A stretch of 32,000 nt of DNA from Schaalia odontolytica (GTDB taxonomy: Bacteria > Actinomycetota > Actinomycetes > Actinomycetales > Actinomycetaceae). The notes under the pieces were generated by a model, which was given only the letters and a program-made list of their open reading frames with translations, was not told the DNA's origin and searched no databases. This document shows positions 23,604 to 29,772 of this stretch, piece after piece. The stretch spans positions 2,010,001 to 2,042,000 of the forward strand of contig NZ_CP040006.1 in assembly GCF_005696695.1 (NCBI RefSeq), read 5' to 3'. Made by a program: the position numbers and the translations under genes. How positions within the stretch are numbered: position 1 is the first letter of the stretch; each line of letters opens with the position of its first letter.

Positions 23604-24566
23604 ATGGGTGCTCAAGCACCTCAGTGGCTGCTGACGTCTTTCGTTGACGCCATGCAGCAAATCGGCGCGACCGCGACCGACACAGACCTCGAACATGAGG
23701 GCACGGACCTCATGCAGCGGTGGAGCGCGCCCAACCGGCAGTTGCACAACCTGCGTCGGCTCATGAACACGCTCACCCATATCGATGAAATCTCGTCGTC
23801 CGCGCACGACCCCGACATCCTGCGCGTCGCTGCGTGGTACCACGGCGCCTTCCTCAACAAGGCGCTCGAGATCAAGCTCGGCGGGTTCCAAGCAAACTTC
23901 GCCTCCACCCGATGCATCGATCACGCGCACAACCGCCTCACCAACCTCGGTGTGCCCGAGGAGGTCGTCGCCCGCATCGACGAGCTGATCGCGTTCCTCA
24001 CGCGCCACCGCGCGCCCCGCACCGACTTCGACGCGCAGGTGCTCGTCGACGCGGACCTGGCGGGCCTGGCCTGCAGCCCGCAGGACTACAAGAAGCTCCG
24101 CACGTCGCTGCGCGCCGAACTCAGCGAGCTCGACGACCTACAGTTCACCAAGGCTCGTATGGCACTCGTCAAGAAGCTCCTGAGCTACGAGACGATCTAC
24201 CAGTCCCCCCTCGGTTCCGCGTGGGAGGATACCGCCCGCGCAAACCTCGAGGTCGAGCTGACCCGCCTTGAGCGCGAGAAGGCCCAGCTGTGCCAGGCCG
24301 CCCAGGCCGAGGACACGGACGACACCGAGGACACGGACGACACCGACGAGGTCGTGGAAGACTCCACGACGACGACCGGCACGCTGATCATCAAGCGCCG
24401 CTCAATCAAGAAGCGCATCCCCGTCGCGTCCCCGGACGACGAGGCAACGTCCACCGGCATCCTGCCCCGCAAGATCGAGGAAGATACCGAGTCGGACGAG
24501 GACGAGGAGGCAACCTCCTCCCTCGAGTCCGCCGTCGAATCCCTGGACCTTCCCACGTCCGACTGA
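23604..24566 (+). CDS. COG4339-like HD-superfamily protein with substituted HD motifs and an acidic low-complexity C-terminal tail, 320 aa
   Basis: AAGGAGAG lies 6 nt upstream of the ATG. The layout resembles predicted metal-dependent phosphohydrolases of the W..Y..R.YH..RH...AAWFHD..YD...DADL..L...Y..Y...R.EY......W...ARANL..EL type. The matching stretches are RWSAPNRQLHNLRRL, AAWYHGAFLN, LVDADLAGLA and SAWEDTARANLEVEL. The tail is rich in D/E/T/S. Confidence 0.6.
   Translation: MGAQAPQWLLTSFVDAMQQIGATATDTDLEHEGTDLMQRWSAPNRQLHNLRRLMNTLTHIDEISSSAHDPDILRVAAWYHGAFLNKALEIKLGGFQANFASTRCIDHAHNRLTNLGVPEEVVARIDELIAFLTRHRAPRTDFDAQVLVDADLAGLACSPQDYKKLRTSLRAELSELDDLQFTKARMALVKKLLSYETIYQSPLGSAWEDTARANLEVELTRLEREKAQLCQAAQAEDTDDTEDTDDTDEVVEDSTTTTGTLIIKRRSIKKRIPVASPDDEATSTGILPRKIEEDTESDEDEEATSSLESAVESLDLPTSD
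24309..24344 (+). repeat. Perfect in-frame 18-bp tandem duplication (GAGGACACGGACGACACC x2) encoding EDTDDT-EDTDDT
   Basis: The two units at 24309-24326 and 24327-24344 are identical by direct reading. Confidence 0.95.
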
Positions 24567-24570
24567 CGAG

Positions 24571-24700
24571 GCCTCGGCCGCCCGCGAAACTAGGCGACCT
24601 CGCTTCGCTCGGTGCCGCGTCTCGAAGCCCGCCCGTGCCCTCCGGTCCCTCCGGCGCCCTCCAAACCTGTGGAGCCTGGCCACTGTGTGCGCTGGTGGGC
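24571..24700 (-). repeat. Inverted, shortened copy of the GC-rich intergenic repeat family found at 27179-28126
   Basis: The reverse complement reads ..GGTTTGGAGGGCGCCGGAGGGACCGGAGGGC-ACGGGC-GGGCTTCGAGACG..CCGAGCGAAGCG.. This aligns with GTGTGGAGGGCGCCGGAGGGTCCGGAGGGC...GGGCTTCGAGCCGACGCGCCGAGCGAAGCT in the 27986 copy, with a ~34-nt internal deletion. Confidence 0.75.
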
Positions 24701-24868
24701 GGCGGCTCCTCACCCGTCAGCAGCACGGGTATACCCTGGCCTATCCACAGGCATTTTTCGGCGCGGGCGGTTATCCACAGGGCTTCGTTTCTGCCTGGAT
24801 CACGCGTCGTCACGCGCGTAGCGTCGATGTCGACGGACCCACCCGGGGTCCCACAAAGGAGTGACATC

Positions 24869-25162
24869 ATGACCGCATACGCCGTCGACGCCGAACAAAT
24901 TGCTGCCGCCTCCGCGCAGGCCTGCACAACCGCATCCACCATCCGCACCGAAGTGGACACGATGATGGCCCAGCTGCTCGCCCTTCAAGACACCTGGACG
25001 GGCGGGGCGCAGGTGAACTTCCAGGCTACTATCACGCAGTGGCAGGGCATCCAGGCGCAGACACACGACGCCTTGGACGCTATCTCCTCGCAGATGCAGG
25101 TTGCGGCCTCCACCTACGCCGACGCAGAAACCCATTCCGCTTCCCTCTTCGCGGGGGTCTGA
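24869..25162 (+). CDS. WXG100-family (EsxA/EsxB-like) small protein, 97 aa
   Basis: AAAGGAG lies ~9 nt upstream of the ATG at 24869. A central W-x-G (LQDTWTGGAQVNF) sits in a ~100-aa helical hairpin-sized protein. The C-terminal STYADAETH fits the YxxxD/E secretion-signal pattern. Confidence 0.85.
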   Translation: MTAYAVDAEQIAAASAQACTTASTIRTEVDTMMAQLLALQDTWTGGAQVNFQATITQWQGIQAQTHDALDAISSQMQVAASTYADAETHSASLFAGV

Positions 25163-25296: not shown

Positions 25297-26997
<1,701 letters not shown>

Positions 26998-27014
26998 TCA
27001 TCGAACCGGTGGTC

Positions 27015-27041
27015 TTATCACTCTCCATGTCGGAGTGCTAA
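27015..27041. promoter_or_regulatory. CIRCE operator 1 (HrcA binding site) upstream of groEL
   Basis: TTATCACTC-N9-GAGTGCTAA compared with the consensus TTAGCACTC-N9-GAGTGCTAA shows 1 mismatch. Confidence 0.85.
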
Positions 27042-27049
27042 CTACGATT

Positions 27050-27076
27050 TTGGCACTCACCATCCCAGAGTGCAAG
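27050..27076. promoter_or_regulatory. CIRCE operator 2 upstream of groEL
   Basis: TTGGCACTC-N9-GAGTGCAAG shows 3 mismatches to the consensus. It lies 8 bp from CIRCE 1. Confidence 0.7.
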
Positions 27077-27090
27077 GCGAGGTCACGGGG

Positions 27091-27111
27091 CTTGAGTCCG
27101 CTGCGCTCAGG
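27091..27111. promoter_or_regulatory. HAIR-like inverted repeat (possible HspR site)
   Basis: CTTGAGT-N7-GCTCAGG compared with the HAIR consensus CTTGAGT-N7-ACTCAAG has a perfect left arm and a 5/7 right arm. Tentative. Confidence 0.3.
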
Positions 27112-27178
27112 GCGTAACAATCAACGACGAGGCCGGGGCCGGCCCACTGAGCGCACCTGCACACCAAGCGCGGCCGGC

Positions 27179-27319
27179 GTGGAAGGCGCCGGAGGATCCG
27201 GAGGGCCTGGCTGCGGTGCCCGTGGGCGGCGGCGAGGCCTGGCCGGGCTTCGAGACGACGCGCCGAGCGAAGCTCGCGGCGCGGACGGCTCGCGGGCGGG
27301 CCGCCGCCCACCGGCACAC
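27179..27319 (+). repeat. GC-rich intergenic repeat, full-length copy R1 (141 nt)
   Basis: By eye it differs from the 27986-28126 copy at only 5 positions. It contains the hairpin GCGCCGAGC-GAA-GCTCGcGGCGC. Confidence 0.85.
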
Positions 27320-27796
27320 ACAGCGGCCGGGGCCTCCGGCGCCCGGAACACCCGTGGGTAGACACAGCAGCCCGCCGAGCGGGCGGCCGGGCCATCCGGC
27401 GCCCAGAACACCAGCGGCAGAACACAACTTGCCCTGTGGGATCCCACGACTGCCGGTCCGCGACAAAATTCGCCCAGCACTGCCCCTCCAGCGGCATTTC
27501 CGCGAAAATATTCGCCCTGCTCATATAAAAACGCTGTTTTTGGGGCATTTTGCGCGCGCTGGGCGAACTTTTTCGCACACGAGGCGCGACAACGTGGCGA
27601 CGTTGAAACCAACAACACCACTGCTCGCCCCCAACAAGGGCCCCTTGAAACCGACATCACCTTTGCACCCGAAAACTGCACCAAAAACACCCATTTCTCA
27701 CCCGCAAAGGCGATGGCGGTTTCACTCCCACACGGATACCAGCAAGCAAAGGTGATGACAGTTTCAGACAACCGGCCCACCTGGTCGACAGGGCCA

Positions 27797-28126
27797 GGCG
27801 GCGGGGCTGGCCGGGCTTCGAGACGACGCACCAGTCCACACGCCAGCACGCTAAGCGCCGCCGGTGTGGAGGGCGCCGGAGGGCCCGGAGGGCCTGGCTG
27901 CGGAGTCCGTGGGCGGTGGCGGGGCCTGGCCGGGCTTCGAGACGACGAGCCAAACAACGTCAGCAGCACACCAGGCCCCACTGGTGTGGAGGGCGCCGGA
28001 GGGTCCGGAGGGCCTGGCTGCGGTGCCCGTGGGCGGCGGCGGGGCCTGGCCGGGCTTCGAGCCGACGCGCCGAGCGAAGCTCGCGGCGCGGACGGCTCGC
28101 GGGCGGGCCGCCGCCCACGGGCACAC
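27797..28126 (+). repeat. Tandem array of the same repeat with a 120-bp period (partial unit 27797-27829, unit 27866-27947, full unit 27986-28126)
   Basis: The landmark GGGCTTCGAG recurs at 27812, 27932 and 28052. GTGGAGGGCGCCGGAGGG recurs at 27866 and 27986. Confidence 0.85.
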
Positions 28127-28194
28127 CAAGTAGCCCGGCCCCACAGCCGGATCCGACGGCGCCCGGAACACCAGCGGAGCAAGACGCAACCTAG

Positions 28195-28232
28195 GCATAA
28201 CAAAGCCGCCCGGCCCCACAGGGGCCGGGCGG
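28195..28232 (-). terminator. Intrinsic terminator after the LytR_C gene
   Basis: CCGCCCGGCCCC-aca-GGGGCCGGGCGG forms a perfect 12-bp stem. On the minus strand it is followed by CTTTGTTAT. Confidence 0.8.
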
Positions 28233-28251
28233 TTCAGTCAGTATCAGTGGT

Positions 28252-28830
28252 TCATCGCAGGATCACGATGATGTCGGGGTCTCCGAGGCCGCTCTCCTGG
28301 CGAACGTTGGAAATACCGAGCTTGGCGGCAACGTCCTTCGCGGTTCCCTCCATGCGGGGATCCTCGTAGAAGACGGTGGAGGTCTGCGTGGCCCAGCCGT
28401 CAGCGTTCGCGGCGGAGGTGCCTGCGTAGCCGGCCTGGTTCAGGATCTGAGCCTGCTGGCCAGCAAACCCTTGCGTTCCAGTGCCGTTGAGGACCTGGAT
28501 GACGGCTCCGTGGTCGGGCTCAGAGGAAGCCGACGGGGAGGAGGAGCTGGCGGAAGGCGTGGGCTCAGCGGACGCGGGGGCCTCGGCCGTGGGCGACGCG
28601 GAGGGAGCGGAGGCGCTCGGGGTGGTCGCGGCGGGGCTGGGCGCGTTGCTGACAGTGGCCTGCTGGCGCGACAGGGCGGTCGCCGCTGCCCATCCGAGGG
28701 CGGGAACGATCACGAGGATGGCCAGGAAAGGCCAGACGTTCTTCCACTTGGACGGCTTGGGGCGGTGCATGCCGACGGGCATATCTTCGCCGGCGCGGTC
28801 AAATTCATCCCTGGGGTACTGAGAACTCAC
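28252..28830 (-). CDS. LytR_C (LytR/CpsA/Psr C-terminal) domain membrane-anchored protein, 192 aa
   Basis: The architecture is an N-terminal YPRDEFD...HR motif, one TM helix (WPFLAILVIVPALGWAAA), a Ser/Ala/Pro linker and a C-terminal domain (VIQVLNGTGTQGFAGQQAQILNQAGY...VFYEDP...AKDVAAKLG). It has a GTG start. Confidence 0.8.
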   Translation of the reverse strand: MSSQYPRDEFDRAGEDMPVGMHRPKPSKWKNVWPFLAILVIVPALGWAAATALSRQQATVSNAPSPAATTPSASAPSASPTAEAPASAEPTPSASSSSPSASSEPDHGAVIQVLNGTGTQGFAGQQAQILNQAGYAGTSAANADGWATQTSTVFYEDPRMEGTAKDVAAKLGISNVRQESGLGDPDIIVILR

Positions 28831-29696: not shown

Positions 29697-29772
29697 TGGA
29701 GCCGGCTATCGGACTCGAACCGATGACCTGCTGTTTACAAGACAGCTGCTCTACCAACTGAGCTAAGCCGGC
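29697..29772 (-). tRNA. tRNA-Thr (anticodon UGU), CCA encoded
   Basis: The minus strand reads GCCGGCT-TA-GCTC-AGTTGGTA-GAGC-A-GCTGT-CTTGTAA-ACAGC-AGGTC-ATCGG-TTCGAGT-CCGAT-AGCCGGC-T-CCA. This is a perfect cloverleaf with a 7-bp acceptor stem, a GTTCGAGT T-loop and anticodon TGT. Confidence 0.95.

Follow-up and report, generated by a model that had tools for sequence, protein, structure and literature searches.

A mosaic nest of palindromic interspersed repeats between groEL and a LytR_C-domain gene in Schaalia odontolytica

Mosaic palindromic repeats in intergenic DNA have been studied mainly in proteobacteria, firmicutes and neisseriae. The BOX elements of Streptococcus pneumoniae are intergenic modular composites with the plan boxA-boxB(n)-boxC; further points of comparison are miniature inverted-repeat transposable elements (MITEs), the Correia elements of Neisseria among them, and transposon ends of the foldback or inverted repeat/direct repeat (IR/DR) type. 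The mycobacterial interspersed repetitive units (MIRUs) lie within operons as direct repeats of 40-100 bp and have no long foldbacks. A survey of the repetitive extragenic palindrome (REP) superfamily found none in actinobacteria (PMC3733652). Here, we describe a nest of palindromic repeats in a 32,000-nt stretch of the Schaalia odontolytica genome (assembly GCF_005696695.1, contig NZ_CP040006.1, positions 2,010,001 to 2,042,000; hereafter the window). The nest spans ~1040 bp (~27154-28190) in the gap between groEL (25297-26925, minus strand) and a LytR_C-domain gene ending at 28252 (minus strand), and is a mosaic of three palindromic, interspersed repeat modules, which we call A, B1 and B2. 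We consider it likely that the region is a mosaic nest of Schaalia/Pauljensenia foldback repeats, largely selfish or structural, and similar in kind to bacterial interspersed mosaic elements (BIMEs), BOX and enterobacterial repetitive intergenic consensus (ERIC) elements.

Module A is ~200 nt long with 80% GC, and is built of two ~90-nt arms closing on a GAA loop that varies among family members. Full copies are foldbacks of ~180-200 nt (DNA fold z ~ -4 vs shuffles), and the window holds two of them (Table 1). A first-pass annotation of the window had described a 141-nt unit at 27179-27319 that recurs at 27986-28126; the two stretches indeed show exactly 5 differences, and the alignable repeat is longer, at 181-220 nt. 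All features listed in that annotation were confirmed well above chance expectation, some with slightly shifted coordinates. The hairpin GCGCCGAGCGAAGCTCGCGGCGC, described as part of each full unit, was located at 27260-27282 and 28067-28089 and is unexpected in shuffles, but it is the mere tip of the ~180-nt foldback. Copy 1 is a hybrid, with its left arm from subfamily 1 and its right arm from subfamily 2 (arm mismatch GTGCCCGTGGGC / GCCCACCGGCAC), and thus reads as a recombinant of two subfamilies. The 17-mer CCGGCGCCCRGAACACC, reported at 27336, 27396 and 28156, occurs at all three positions, the third with one mismatch (ACGG... for CCGG...), compared with 0.05 matches in shuffles, and marks the right end of A. 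Two of the pieces are spaced 60 nt apart; the first (27323-27366) is the true right end of copy 1, and the second is a solo right-end fragment.

The tandem array, thought to have an exact 120-bp period, was recovered by Tandem Repeats Finder (TRF) with period 120 and 2.3 copies (27797-28071), but the spacing is 119 and then 120. Its landmark GGGCTTCGAG lies at 27932 and 28052 as described, at 27813 instead of 27812, and additionally at 27245. The array consists of A left arms plus a ~30-nt linker, and the last copy alone runs on into the centre and right arm. The segment at ~27430-27790, set apart as a lower-GC core bracketed by repeats, does have a GC content of 0.52-0.63 against 0.77-0.82 in its flanks; the core itself, however, consists of two further repeat families, B1 and B2, which the first reading had missed together with a fourth, diverged GC-rich copy at 24578-24708. 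B1 and B2 have a common plan, a ~20-bp motif present twice 40-42 bp apart, an A/T-rich centre and inverted motif copies. In B1 (~130 nt), direct CGCGAAAAAGTTCGCCC-like motifs stand 41-42 bp apart, followed by the A/T-rich centre and one to three inverted copies; the window B1 has direct copies at 27459 and 27501 and an inverted copy at 27561. B2 (~165 nt) carries the motif TGAAACC-N7-CCNNTGC in direct orientation at 27604-27624 and 27646-27666, an A-rich centre, and inverted copies at 27704-27724 and 27746-27766.

Table 1 Repeat modules of the nest and flanking landmarks, in window coordinates
Feature	Position	Strand	Basis and remarks
A, full copy 1	27154-27363	+	nhmmer family profile E 3e-54; in register with 37 other copies; DNA fold
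A, solo right-end fragment	27383-27426	+	Repeat-family comparison; carries the 17-mer
B1	27445-27580	+	AT-richer palindrome; arms covary
B2	27600-27772	+	Palindrome, C/A-rich on + strand; inverted repeats; both strands folded
A, partial (profile positions 77-113)	27797-27832	+	Fused to B2 end; conserved B1-B2-A junction
A, left arm only (profile positions 3-119)	27836-27957	+	TRF, nhmmer; forms the 119/120-bp array with the next copy
A, full copy 2, subfamily 1	27961-28182	+	nhmmer E 1e-59; DNA fold
A, diverged and truncated	24578-24708	-	nhmmer E 3.7e-9; aligned with longer versions of two relatives
Intrinsic-terminator-like hairpin of the LytR_C gene	28206-28232	-	12 G-C pairs, then CTTTGTTATG; inverted repeat
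Two CIRCE-like inverted repeats	27015-27041, 27050-27076	.	Unique DNA directly upstream of groEL

We then investigated the distribution of the modules. We searched one genome per species for a 21-mer of the A core, which matched at least 120 stretches; among the matches listed, 109 stretches came from about 26 assemblies of the Schaalia/Pauljensenia/'Actinomyces' odontolyticus group. One draft genome held at least 19 A-core loci, and many matches lie at contig ends. Eleven A-core matches in other phyla were dismissed as chance, as none fits the family profile and all four examined individually fall within long open reading frames (ORFs). Profile searches of the DNA retrieved revealed 191 copies of A (52 full, 139 partial), 50 of B1 and 45 of B2 in 133 nests, which are spread over 110 stretches from about 26 Schaalia/Pauljensenia assemblies. 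The median nest is 224 bp, and the nest of the window lies above the 90th percentile. The low-GC core matches 20-30 other loci of this set, and strongly coding ORFs contain 0 Schaalia copies of the modules. The modules are therefore not unique to this locus, a possibility that had been left standing, but are found at many intergenic sites across Schaalia genomes. The earlier wording 'MITE/REP-like repeat nest' holds as a description, since the repeats are interspersed, intergenic, hairpin-forming and multi-copy across the genus; for membership proper in either class, no target-site duplication, parent insertion sequence (IS) or REP-associated tyrosine transposase (RAYT) was found.

The modules occur solo as well as in composites, commonly in the order B1-B2-A. 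Among 32 long copies of B2, 20 adjoin B1 directly, and 18 have A within 400 bp on the other side, invariably (18/18) on the same strand. The B2-partial-A junction is identical at several non-orthologous loci within single genomes, which indicates that the composite was copied as a unit. The neighbours of the nests are housekeeping genes, encoding ABC transporters, GroEL, glycosyltransferases, DnaB, aldolase and ribosomal proteins, and tRNA genes are also adjacent.

Two assemblies with other genus labels carry the repeats as well: 'Xylanimonas cellulosilytica 352_XCEL' (JVKM01; L013, L017, L030, L038 and others) and 'Sanguibacter keddieii 250_SKED' (JVOJ01; L012, L021, L034, L082). The label of 352_XCEL looks wrong, as its flanks are 95-98% identical to the window. 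A BLAST search of the whole nest against plasmid and phage collections gave no match. Three matches in high-GC viral contigs were traced to prophages of Schaalia-like hosts, with the nest in host DNA, beyond a tRNA-derived attachment site. In one IMG/VR prophage contig (L139, 11900-12900), a B1-B2-A nest lies directly beyond the tRNA-derived attachment site, beside an integrase gene, and in another (L141, 9441-10800) such a nest, likewise in host DNA, has a tRNA-Asn gene next to it. The B2 motif GCAAAGGYGAYNNNGGTTTCA also matches dozens of sites in low-GC viral contigs (L122-L124, L127, L128, L134, L135, L137). These matches were rejected as chance; they encode Gly-Ser-Lys-Gly-Asp-Thr-Gly-Phe, a collagen-like Gly-X-Y repeat of tail-fibre-type genes.

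Comparison of the locus among strains, as proposed earlier, and among species revealed extensive variation in spacer length and module content. Four lineages, with flanks ~81-98% identical to the window, carry a nest between the LytR_C gene and groEL, and its module content differs: A-B1-B2-A'-A'-A in the window, A'-A-B1-B2-A'...A in strain 352_XCEL, A-B2-B1-B1...A'-A in one metagenome-assembled genome (MAG; L051+L109) and A-B2-B1-B2...A'-A'-A in another (L028). Ten assemblies encode exactly the GroEL protein of the window, and their spacers measure 576, 576, 576, 1123, 1267, 1326 (window), 1392, 1412, 1528 and 1608 bp. The three 576-bp spacers keep one full and one partial A and are without B1, B2 and one A; relative to the window they show a 728-bp deletion whose ends lie inside two direct A copies. 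A strain with 99.8% flank identity differs by 59 bp inside the A array. Elsewhere, a full A in one locus (L104) corresponds to a solo right end in another (L087), like the solo right end in the window, with the microhomology CGAGGCCG at both break points; this difference is typical of deletion between short direct repeats. An all-vs-all comparison of loci yielded two informative pairs, and deletion or variation inside a nest fits both. Through unequal or homologous recombination between its direct copies, the nest changes rapidly. Variants with a deletion between the two direct A copies exist, but the same modules recur at dozens of other loci and several species carry the nest at this locus; hence the region is not just a scar left by a single excised element, as had been considered.

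The orthologous A of two relatives is 90.3% and 93.4% identical to that of the window; the corresponding values are 94.7% and 95.6% for the variable codon position of groEL and 90.7% and 99.1% for the unique upstream segment. At a single locus, the repeat is thus no more conserved than neutral sites.

We asked whether the region could hide a protein-coding gene, such as the 360-aa ORF at 27121-28203 (minus strand) or the annotated 89-aa ORF at 27864-28133 (plus strand), since both strands contain long ORFs and several assemblies have hypothetical proteins annotated at this place. Pfam matched none of the five ORFs tested in the region, and their GC content at codon position 2 (0.66-0.71) lies outside the range of the genuine window genes (0.36-0.58), in agreement with the first-pass annotation, which had found no credible gene. 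The annotations of the ten strains give ORFs of 89, 203, 265, 286 or 429 aa or none, varying in strand, length and position and without Pfam match; the repeat copies are distinguished by indels whose lengths are not divisible by three, and long ORFs are expected in palindromes of 80% GC. We regard a hidden gene as barely credible; the hypothetical proteins called in the nest, including the 89-aa one, are probably annotation artefacts of GC-rich palindromes.

We then considered whether the nest might yield one or more structured small RNAs acting at the locus, for example on groEL. The predicted folds are very stable, and wobble-type pairs favour one strand of each module: as RNA, the plus strand of A is predicted to be slightly more stable (-142 vs -135 kcal/mol, 33/38 copies), and the minus strand of B2 far more so (-80 vs -55 kcal/mol, 23/23 copies). 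As for the hairpins themselves, compensatory changes in both arms distinguish the two A subfamilies (pairs 85-203 UA/CG and 94-190 CG/GC), with GTGCCCGTGGGC pairing with GCCCACGGGCAC, GTGCCGGTGGGC with GCCCACCGGCAC, and a T-A/C-G swap further out; these changes represent few evolutionary events. The arms of B1 covary (score 0.121 vs 0.086 +/- 0.011 in shuffles, with 0/500 as high), exceeding slid controls, and the direct motif copies inside one B1 carry the same variants, so that the covariation fits homogenisation within the element as well as selection for pairing. In two solo B1 copies that appear to be orthologues from two species (L062 3554-3679 and L023 6081-6212), both direct motifs share a lineage-specific base (GACAACATT vs GACAAAATT), a pattern that suggests homogenisation or re-duplication within the element after the species split.

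B2 behaves differently: 87% of its cells pair, its variable motif centre is mostly unpaired while the motif halves are invariant, and its covariation is not above shuffles. Its plus strand is C/A-rich, G-poor and weakly folded, and its minus strand G/U-rich and strongly folded, but the strand z-scores of the window copy are similar (-6.1 and -5.1). Given these z-scores and the lack of covariation, we treated the asymmetry as mainly compositional and rejected the idea of B2 as an RNA selected on the minus strand, despite the raw gap of 25 kcal/mol. Furthermore, A and B2 are collinear yet favour opposite strands, which argues against one functional transcript.

The remaining evidence on RNA points the same way. 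At gathering scores, the sole Rfam 15 match in the whole window is a tRNA at 29700-29772 (minus strand, 1.5 kb from the nest); at 26850-28350, the best sub-threshold matches (E 0.06-8) fall far under gathering scores, so that the Rfam check proposed earlier gave no relevant family even at E up to 10. No promoter-like and no extra terminator-like sites were found in the nest, where the promoter scan says little, because a sigma-70-like site was absent from groEL too. A canonical terminator lies between the upstream gene and the nest, three strains with identical GroEL lack most of the region, and orthologous copies diverge at or above the synonymous-site rate. The folds are those of generic palindromes. 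An earlier suggestion of a structured non-coding RNA locus is thus not supported, and we judge a small RNA acting here to be improbable.

We next examined mobility. The modules could be active non-autonomous transposons, MITE-like or REPIN-like (REPINs being REP doublets forming hairpins), whose enzyme, encoded elsewhere, recognises the A core or the B1/B2 motifs, with the nest as an insertion hot spot. This is suggested by the many copies per genome across the genus, by terminal and subterminal inverted motifs in an IR/DR-like layout of two direct and two inverted sites 40-42 bp apart, by the near-invariant A core, by the same-junction B1-B2-A composite at several non-orthologous loci in one genome, and by presence/absence polymorphism among strains. 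Moreover, all three modules are small, lack an ORF and consist of inverted repeats, being palindromic over their full length, as in MITEs. Against this, solo B1 copies showed no target-site duplication on inspection, and the compared loci included no clean empty site; recombination or deletion between direct repeats accounts for the strain polymorphisms that were examined; and nests occupy orthologous positions in several species, which indicates that those insertions are old. No transposase was present in the 25 commonest of 102 Pfam families matched by 130 nest-adjoining genes, nor, for the 36 smallest nest neighbours, in 25 of their 26 matched families, and no Y1_Tnp or recombinase family was among the nest-neighbour families listed. 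Clustering of the ORFs of 109 loci gave ABC-type paralogues and spurious repeat ORFs, and no multi-copy gene accompanying the nests. For a parent IS, no inverted motif pair was detected around a transposase-sized ORF in ~1.1 Mb of sampled Schaalia DNA, and the plasmid and phage collections are without copies. Active transposition is accordingly a possible but rather unlikely account of the modules.

Other known repeat classes were compared as well. The modules measure 130-220 nt, against the 20-40 nt of REPs, which carry a conserved GTAG or CGTC end tag (criteria: PMC3733652), and the 23-nt central hairpin of A is flanked by GACG/CGTC-like bases with no tag-like position. They are extragenic and present in many copies per genome, as REPs and REPINs are, and A, a single long foldback with covarying arms, resembles a REPIN in architecture only. 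The order B1-B2-A in 18-20 of 32 B2 copies, on the same strand, and the varying module numbers correspond to a BIME/BOX-type mosaic. A CRISPR array was rejected, as the units measure 120-220 nt (vs 24-48 nt) and the 'spacers' are repeats found elsewhere. What we take to be a likeness of the B motifs to ISL3 ends, parS half-sites and LexA boxes was judged too weak and was not used.

A further explanation is that the modules are cis-acting sites, either protein-binding arrays (B1/B2 motifs on one helix face) or hairpins that terminate, insulate or stabilise 3' ends and here protect the CIRCE-controlled groEL promoter against read-through. Where their flanks could be resolved, full A copies lie between 11 convergent, 14 co-directional and 2 divergent gene pairs, and in 11 of the 14 co-directional contexts the window plus strand is antisense to the genes, counts that are small and non-independent across orthologous loci. 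They point to a preference for gene 3' ends and depletion between divergent genes, and the neighbours include highly expressed genes (groEL, ribosomal proteins, aldolase, tRNA genes). The invariant halves and variable, unpaired centre of the B2 motif are more protein-site-like than helix-like, the opposite composition and folding of the two B2 strands fits here too, and at least one A is kept at the locus in all strains and species seen. On the other hand, the LytR_C gene has its own canonical terminator ahead of the nest, three strains with identical GroEL are without B1, B2 and one A, the orthologous A diverges at least as much as groEL third positions and the unique spacer, and the nest is without promoter-like or extra terminator-like sites. 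We know of no binding protein for the B1/B2 motifs. Overall, we find a dedicated cis-acting role doubtful.

We therefore return to the reading of the region as a largely selfish or structural nest of foldback repeats, which is carried by the dispersal of the modules, their intergenic position, their conserved order, their co-evolving arms and their rapid turnover. The modules would be non-coding, non-autonomous and largely selfish DNA that spread in the past via some mobilising activity or via recombination. They would persist where harmless, here between the LytR_C terminator and the HrcA/CIRCE-controlled groEL promoter, and any effect they have, as anti-read-through hairpins or recombination substrates, would be generic and not specific to the locus. 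Such a generic cis effect might come from extra hairpins that block read-through, from arrays of binding sites or from a C-rich surface for Rho loading on the antisense strand.

Several observations weigh against this interpretation. The signs of mobility listed above were not found in the loci, neighbouring genes and DNA sampled, neither at the insertion sites (target-site duplications, clean empty sites) nor as a transposase or parent element, and the orientation evidence is limited by its small, non-independent counts. B2 is strongly strand-asymmetric, which is unexpected for pure selfish DNA. In 38 copies from many species, approximately 50 nt of the A core that played no role in the search are near-invariant, which suggests homogenisation or sequence-specific constraint. 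Finally, the presence of at least one A at the locus in every strain and species examined leaves room for a local role of A. By analogy with REPINs and RAYTs, the modules may form one half, the one that can be seen, of a repeat-host system that is passed on vertically in Actinomycetota. In such a system, the A core and the phased 20-bp B1/B2 motifs would be recognised by a single-copy enzyme or a DNA-binding protein, which would copy or homogenise the modules. This would explain near-identical cores across species despite diverged orthologous flanks; we consider it a speculative and fairly improbable extension.

The surroundings of the nest define its edges. At the distal edge, the stop codon of the LytR_C gene is followed by the terminator-like hairpin with its T-rich tail; at the proximal edge lie the two CIRCE-like repeats (controlling inverted repeat of chaperone expression), with 1 and 3 mismatches to TTAGCACTC-N9-GAGTGCTAA, which are context and not members of the repeat family. 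From these repeats, groEL is probably under HrcA control. As the terminator and the CIRCE elements mark the two sides, the nest fills the space between them. The unique segment at 26925-27139, which carries the CIRCE-like repeats, is 99% identical in 352_XCEL, and the adjoining repeat 93%. The left arm of the terminator (ACAAAGCCGCCCGGCCCCACAG, 28200-28221) is 86% identical to 28125-28146, a stretch at the right end of A copy 2; the terminator may have derived from an A right-end fragment, or the reverse.

In the whole window, interspersed repeats occur in two places only, the groEL-side nest and the diverged A. The latter sits between a gene for a 321-aa protein (23604-24566, plus strand) and a WXG100 gene (24869-25162, plus strand), in a spacer that varies from 303 to 650 bp among strains with identical GroEL; at both ends, the window version is shorter than those of two relatives. 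Repeats of the A family, oppositely oriented, thus lie on either side of groEL and the WXG100 gene.

In a 6-kb comparison, the window matched LLVT01000001.1 (GCA_001462375.1, ~304-313 kb) exactly. This contig belongs to the draft genome LLVT00000000 of strain XH001 (Actinomyces, now Schaalia, odontolyticus subsp. actinosynbacter), which is the model host of TM7x, an epibiont of the Saccharibacteria. The XH001 genome announcement makes no mention of repeats, and we found no account of such repeats in Schaalia or Actinomyces in the searchable literature. As XH001 is the TM7x model host, transcriptomes and genetics exist with which effects of the nest on its highly expressed neighbours can be tested.

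These results place mosaic palindromic repeats in an oral actinobacterial genus and have practical consequences. The repeats break short-read assemblies, with many copies at contig ends; for instance, a 947-bp contig with the exact LytR_C protein ends 108 bp past the LytR_C gene, near the repeat. They seed spurious 'hypothetical protein' calls, and the spacer is a hypervariable, strain-discriminating length marker (576-1608 bp at identical GroEL).

Compared with known systems, the nest resembles the REP-built BIMEs of E. coli and relatives in being an extragenic mosaic cluster of palindromic units and linkers, mostly at gene 3' ends, with a unit number that varies between strains. It differs in that BIME units measure ~35-40 nt (vs 130-220 nt here), the sequence is unrelated, the host is an actinobacterium, and no association with RAYT, integration host factor (IHF) or gyrase was found. 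With BOX elements it shares three kinds of unit in a fixed order, one of them in variable tandem number, an intergenic position and a stable predicted fold; in contrast to BOX, the sequence is unrelated, each module is palindromic and also occurs solo, and the host is GC-rich. ERIC elements, also called intergenic repeat units (IRUs), of enterobacteria and the REPINs of Pseudomonas are likewise imperfect intergenic palindromes of 100-130 nt or longer, with tens or more copies per genome, long vertical persistence and co-evolving arms. REPINs, however, have a cognate single-copy RAYT and short REP ends, neither of which was found here, and A is longer than ERIC and REPIN elements, its left arm often being tandemly duplicated. 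Like MITEs, the modules are small, without ORF and with inverted ends, and B1 and B2 resemble transposon ends with several transposase-binding sites; unlike MITEs, they show no target-site duplication and no related autonomous element was found, and the insertions are old and orthologous. The MIRU-type variable-number tandem repeats share an actinobacterial host and intergenic tandem units that vary between close strains, whereas here whole modules vary as well as the 120-bp unit. Since the defining features of REP/RAYT (short tagged units, a flanked RAYT) and MITE families (target duplication, a parent IS) were not found in the sequences examined, we file the modules as a new family of 'interspersed mosaic palindromic repeats' without assigning them to a named family. 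The nest is apparently an undescribed family of a familiar kind of bacterial repeat, and not a new kind of system.

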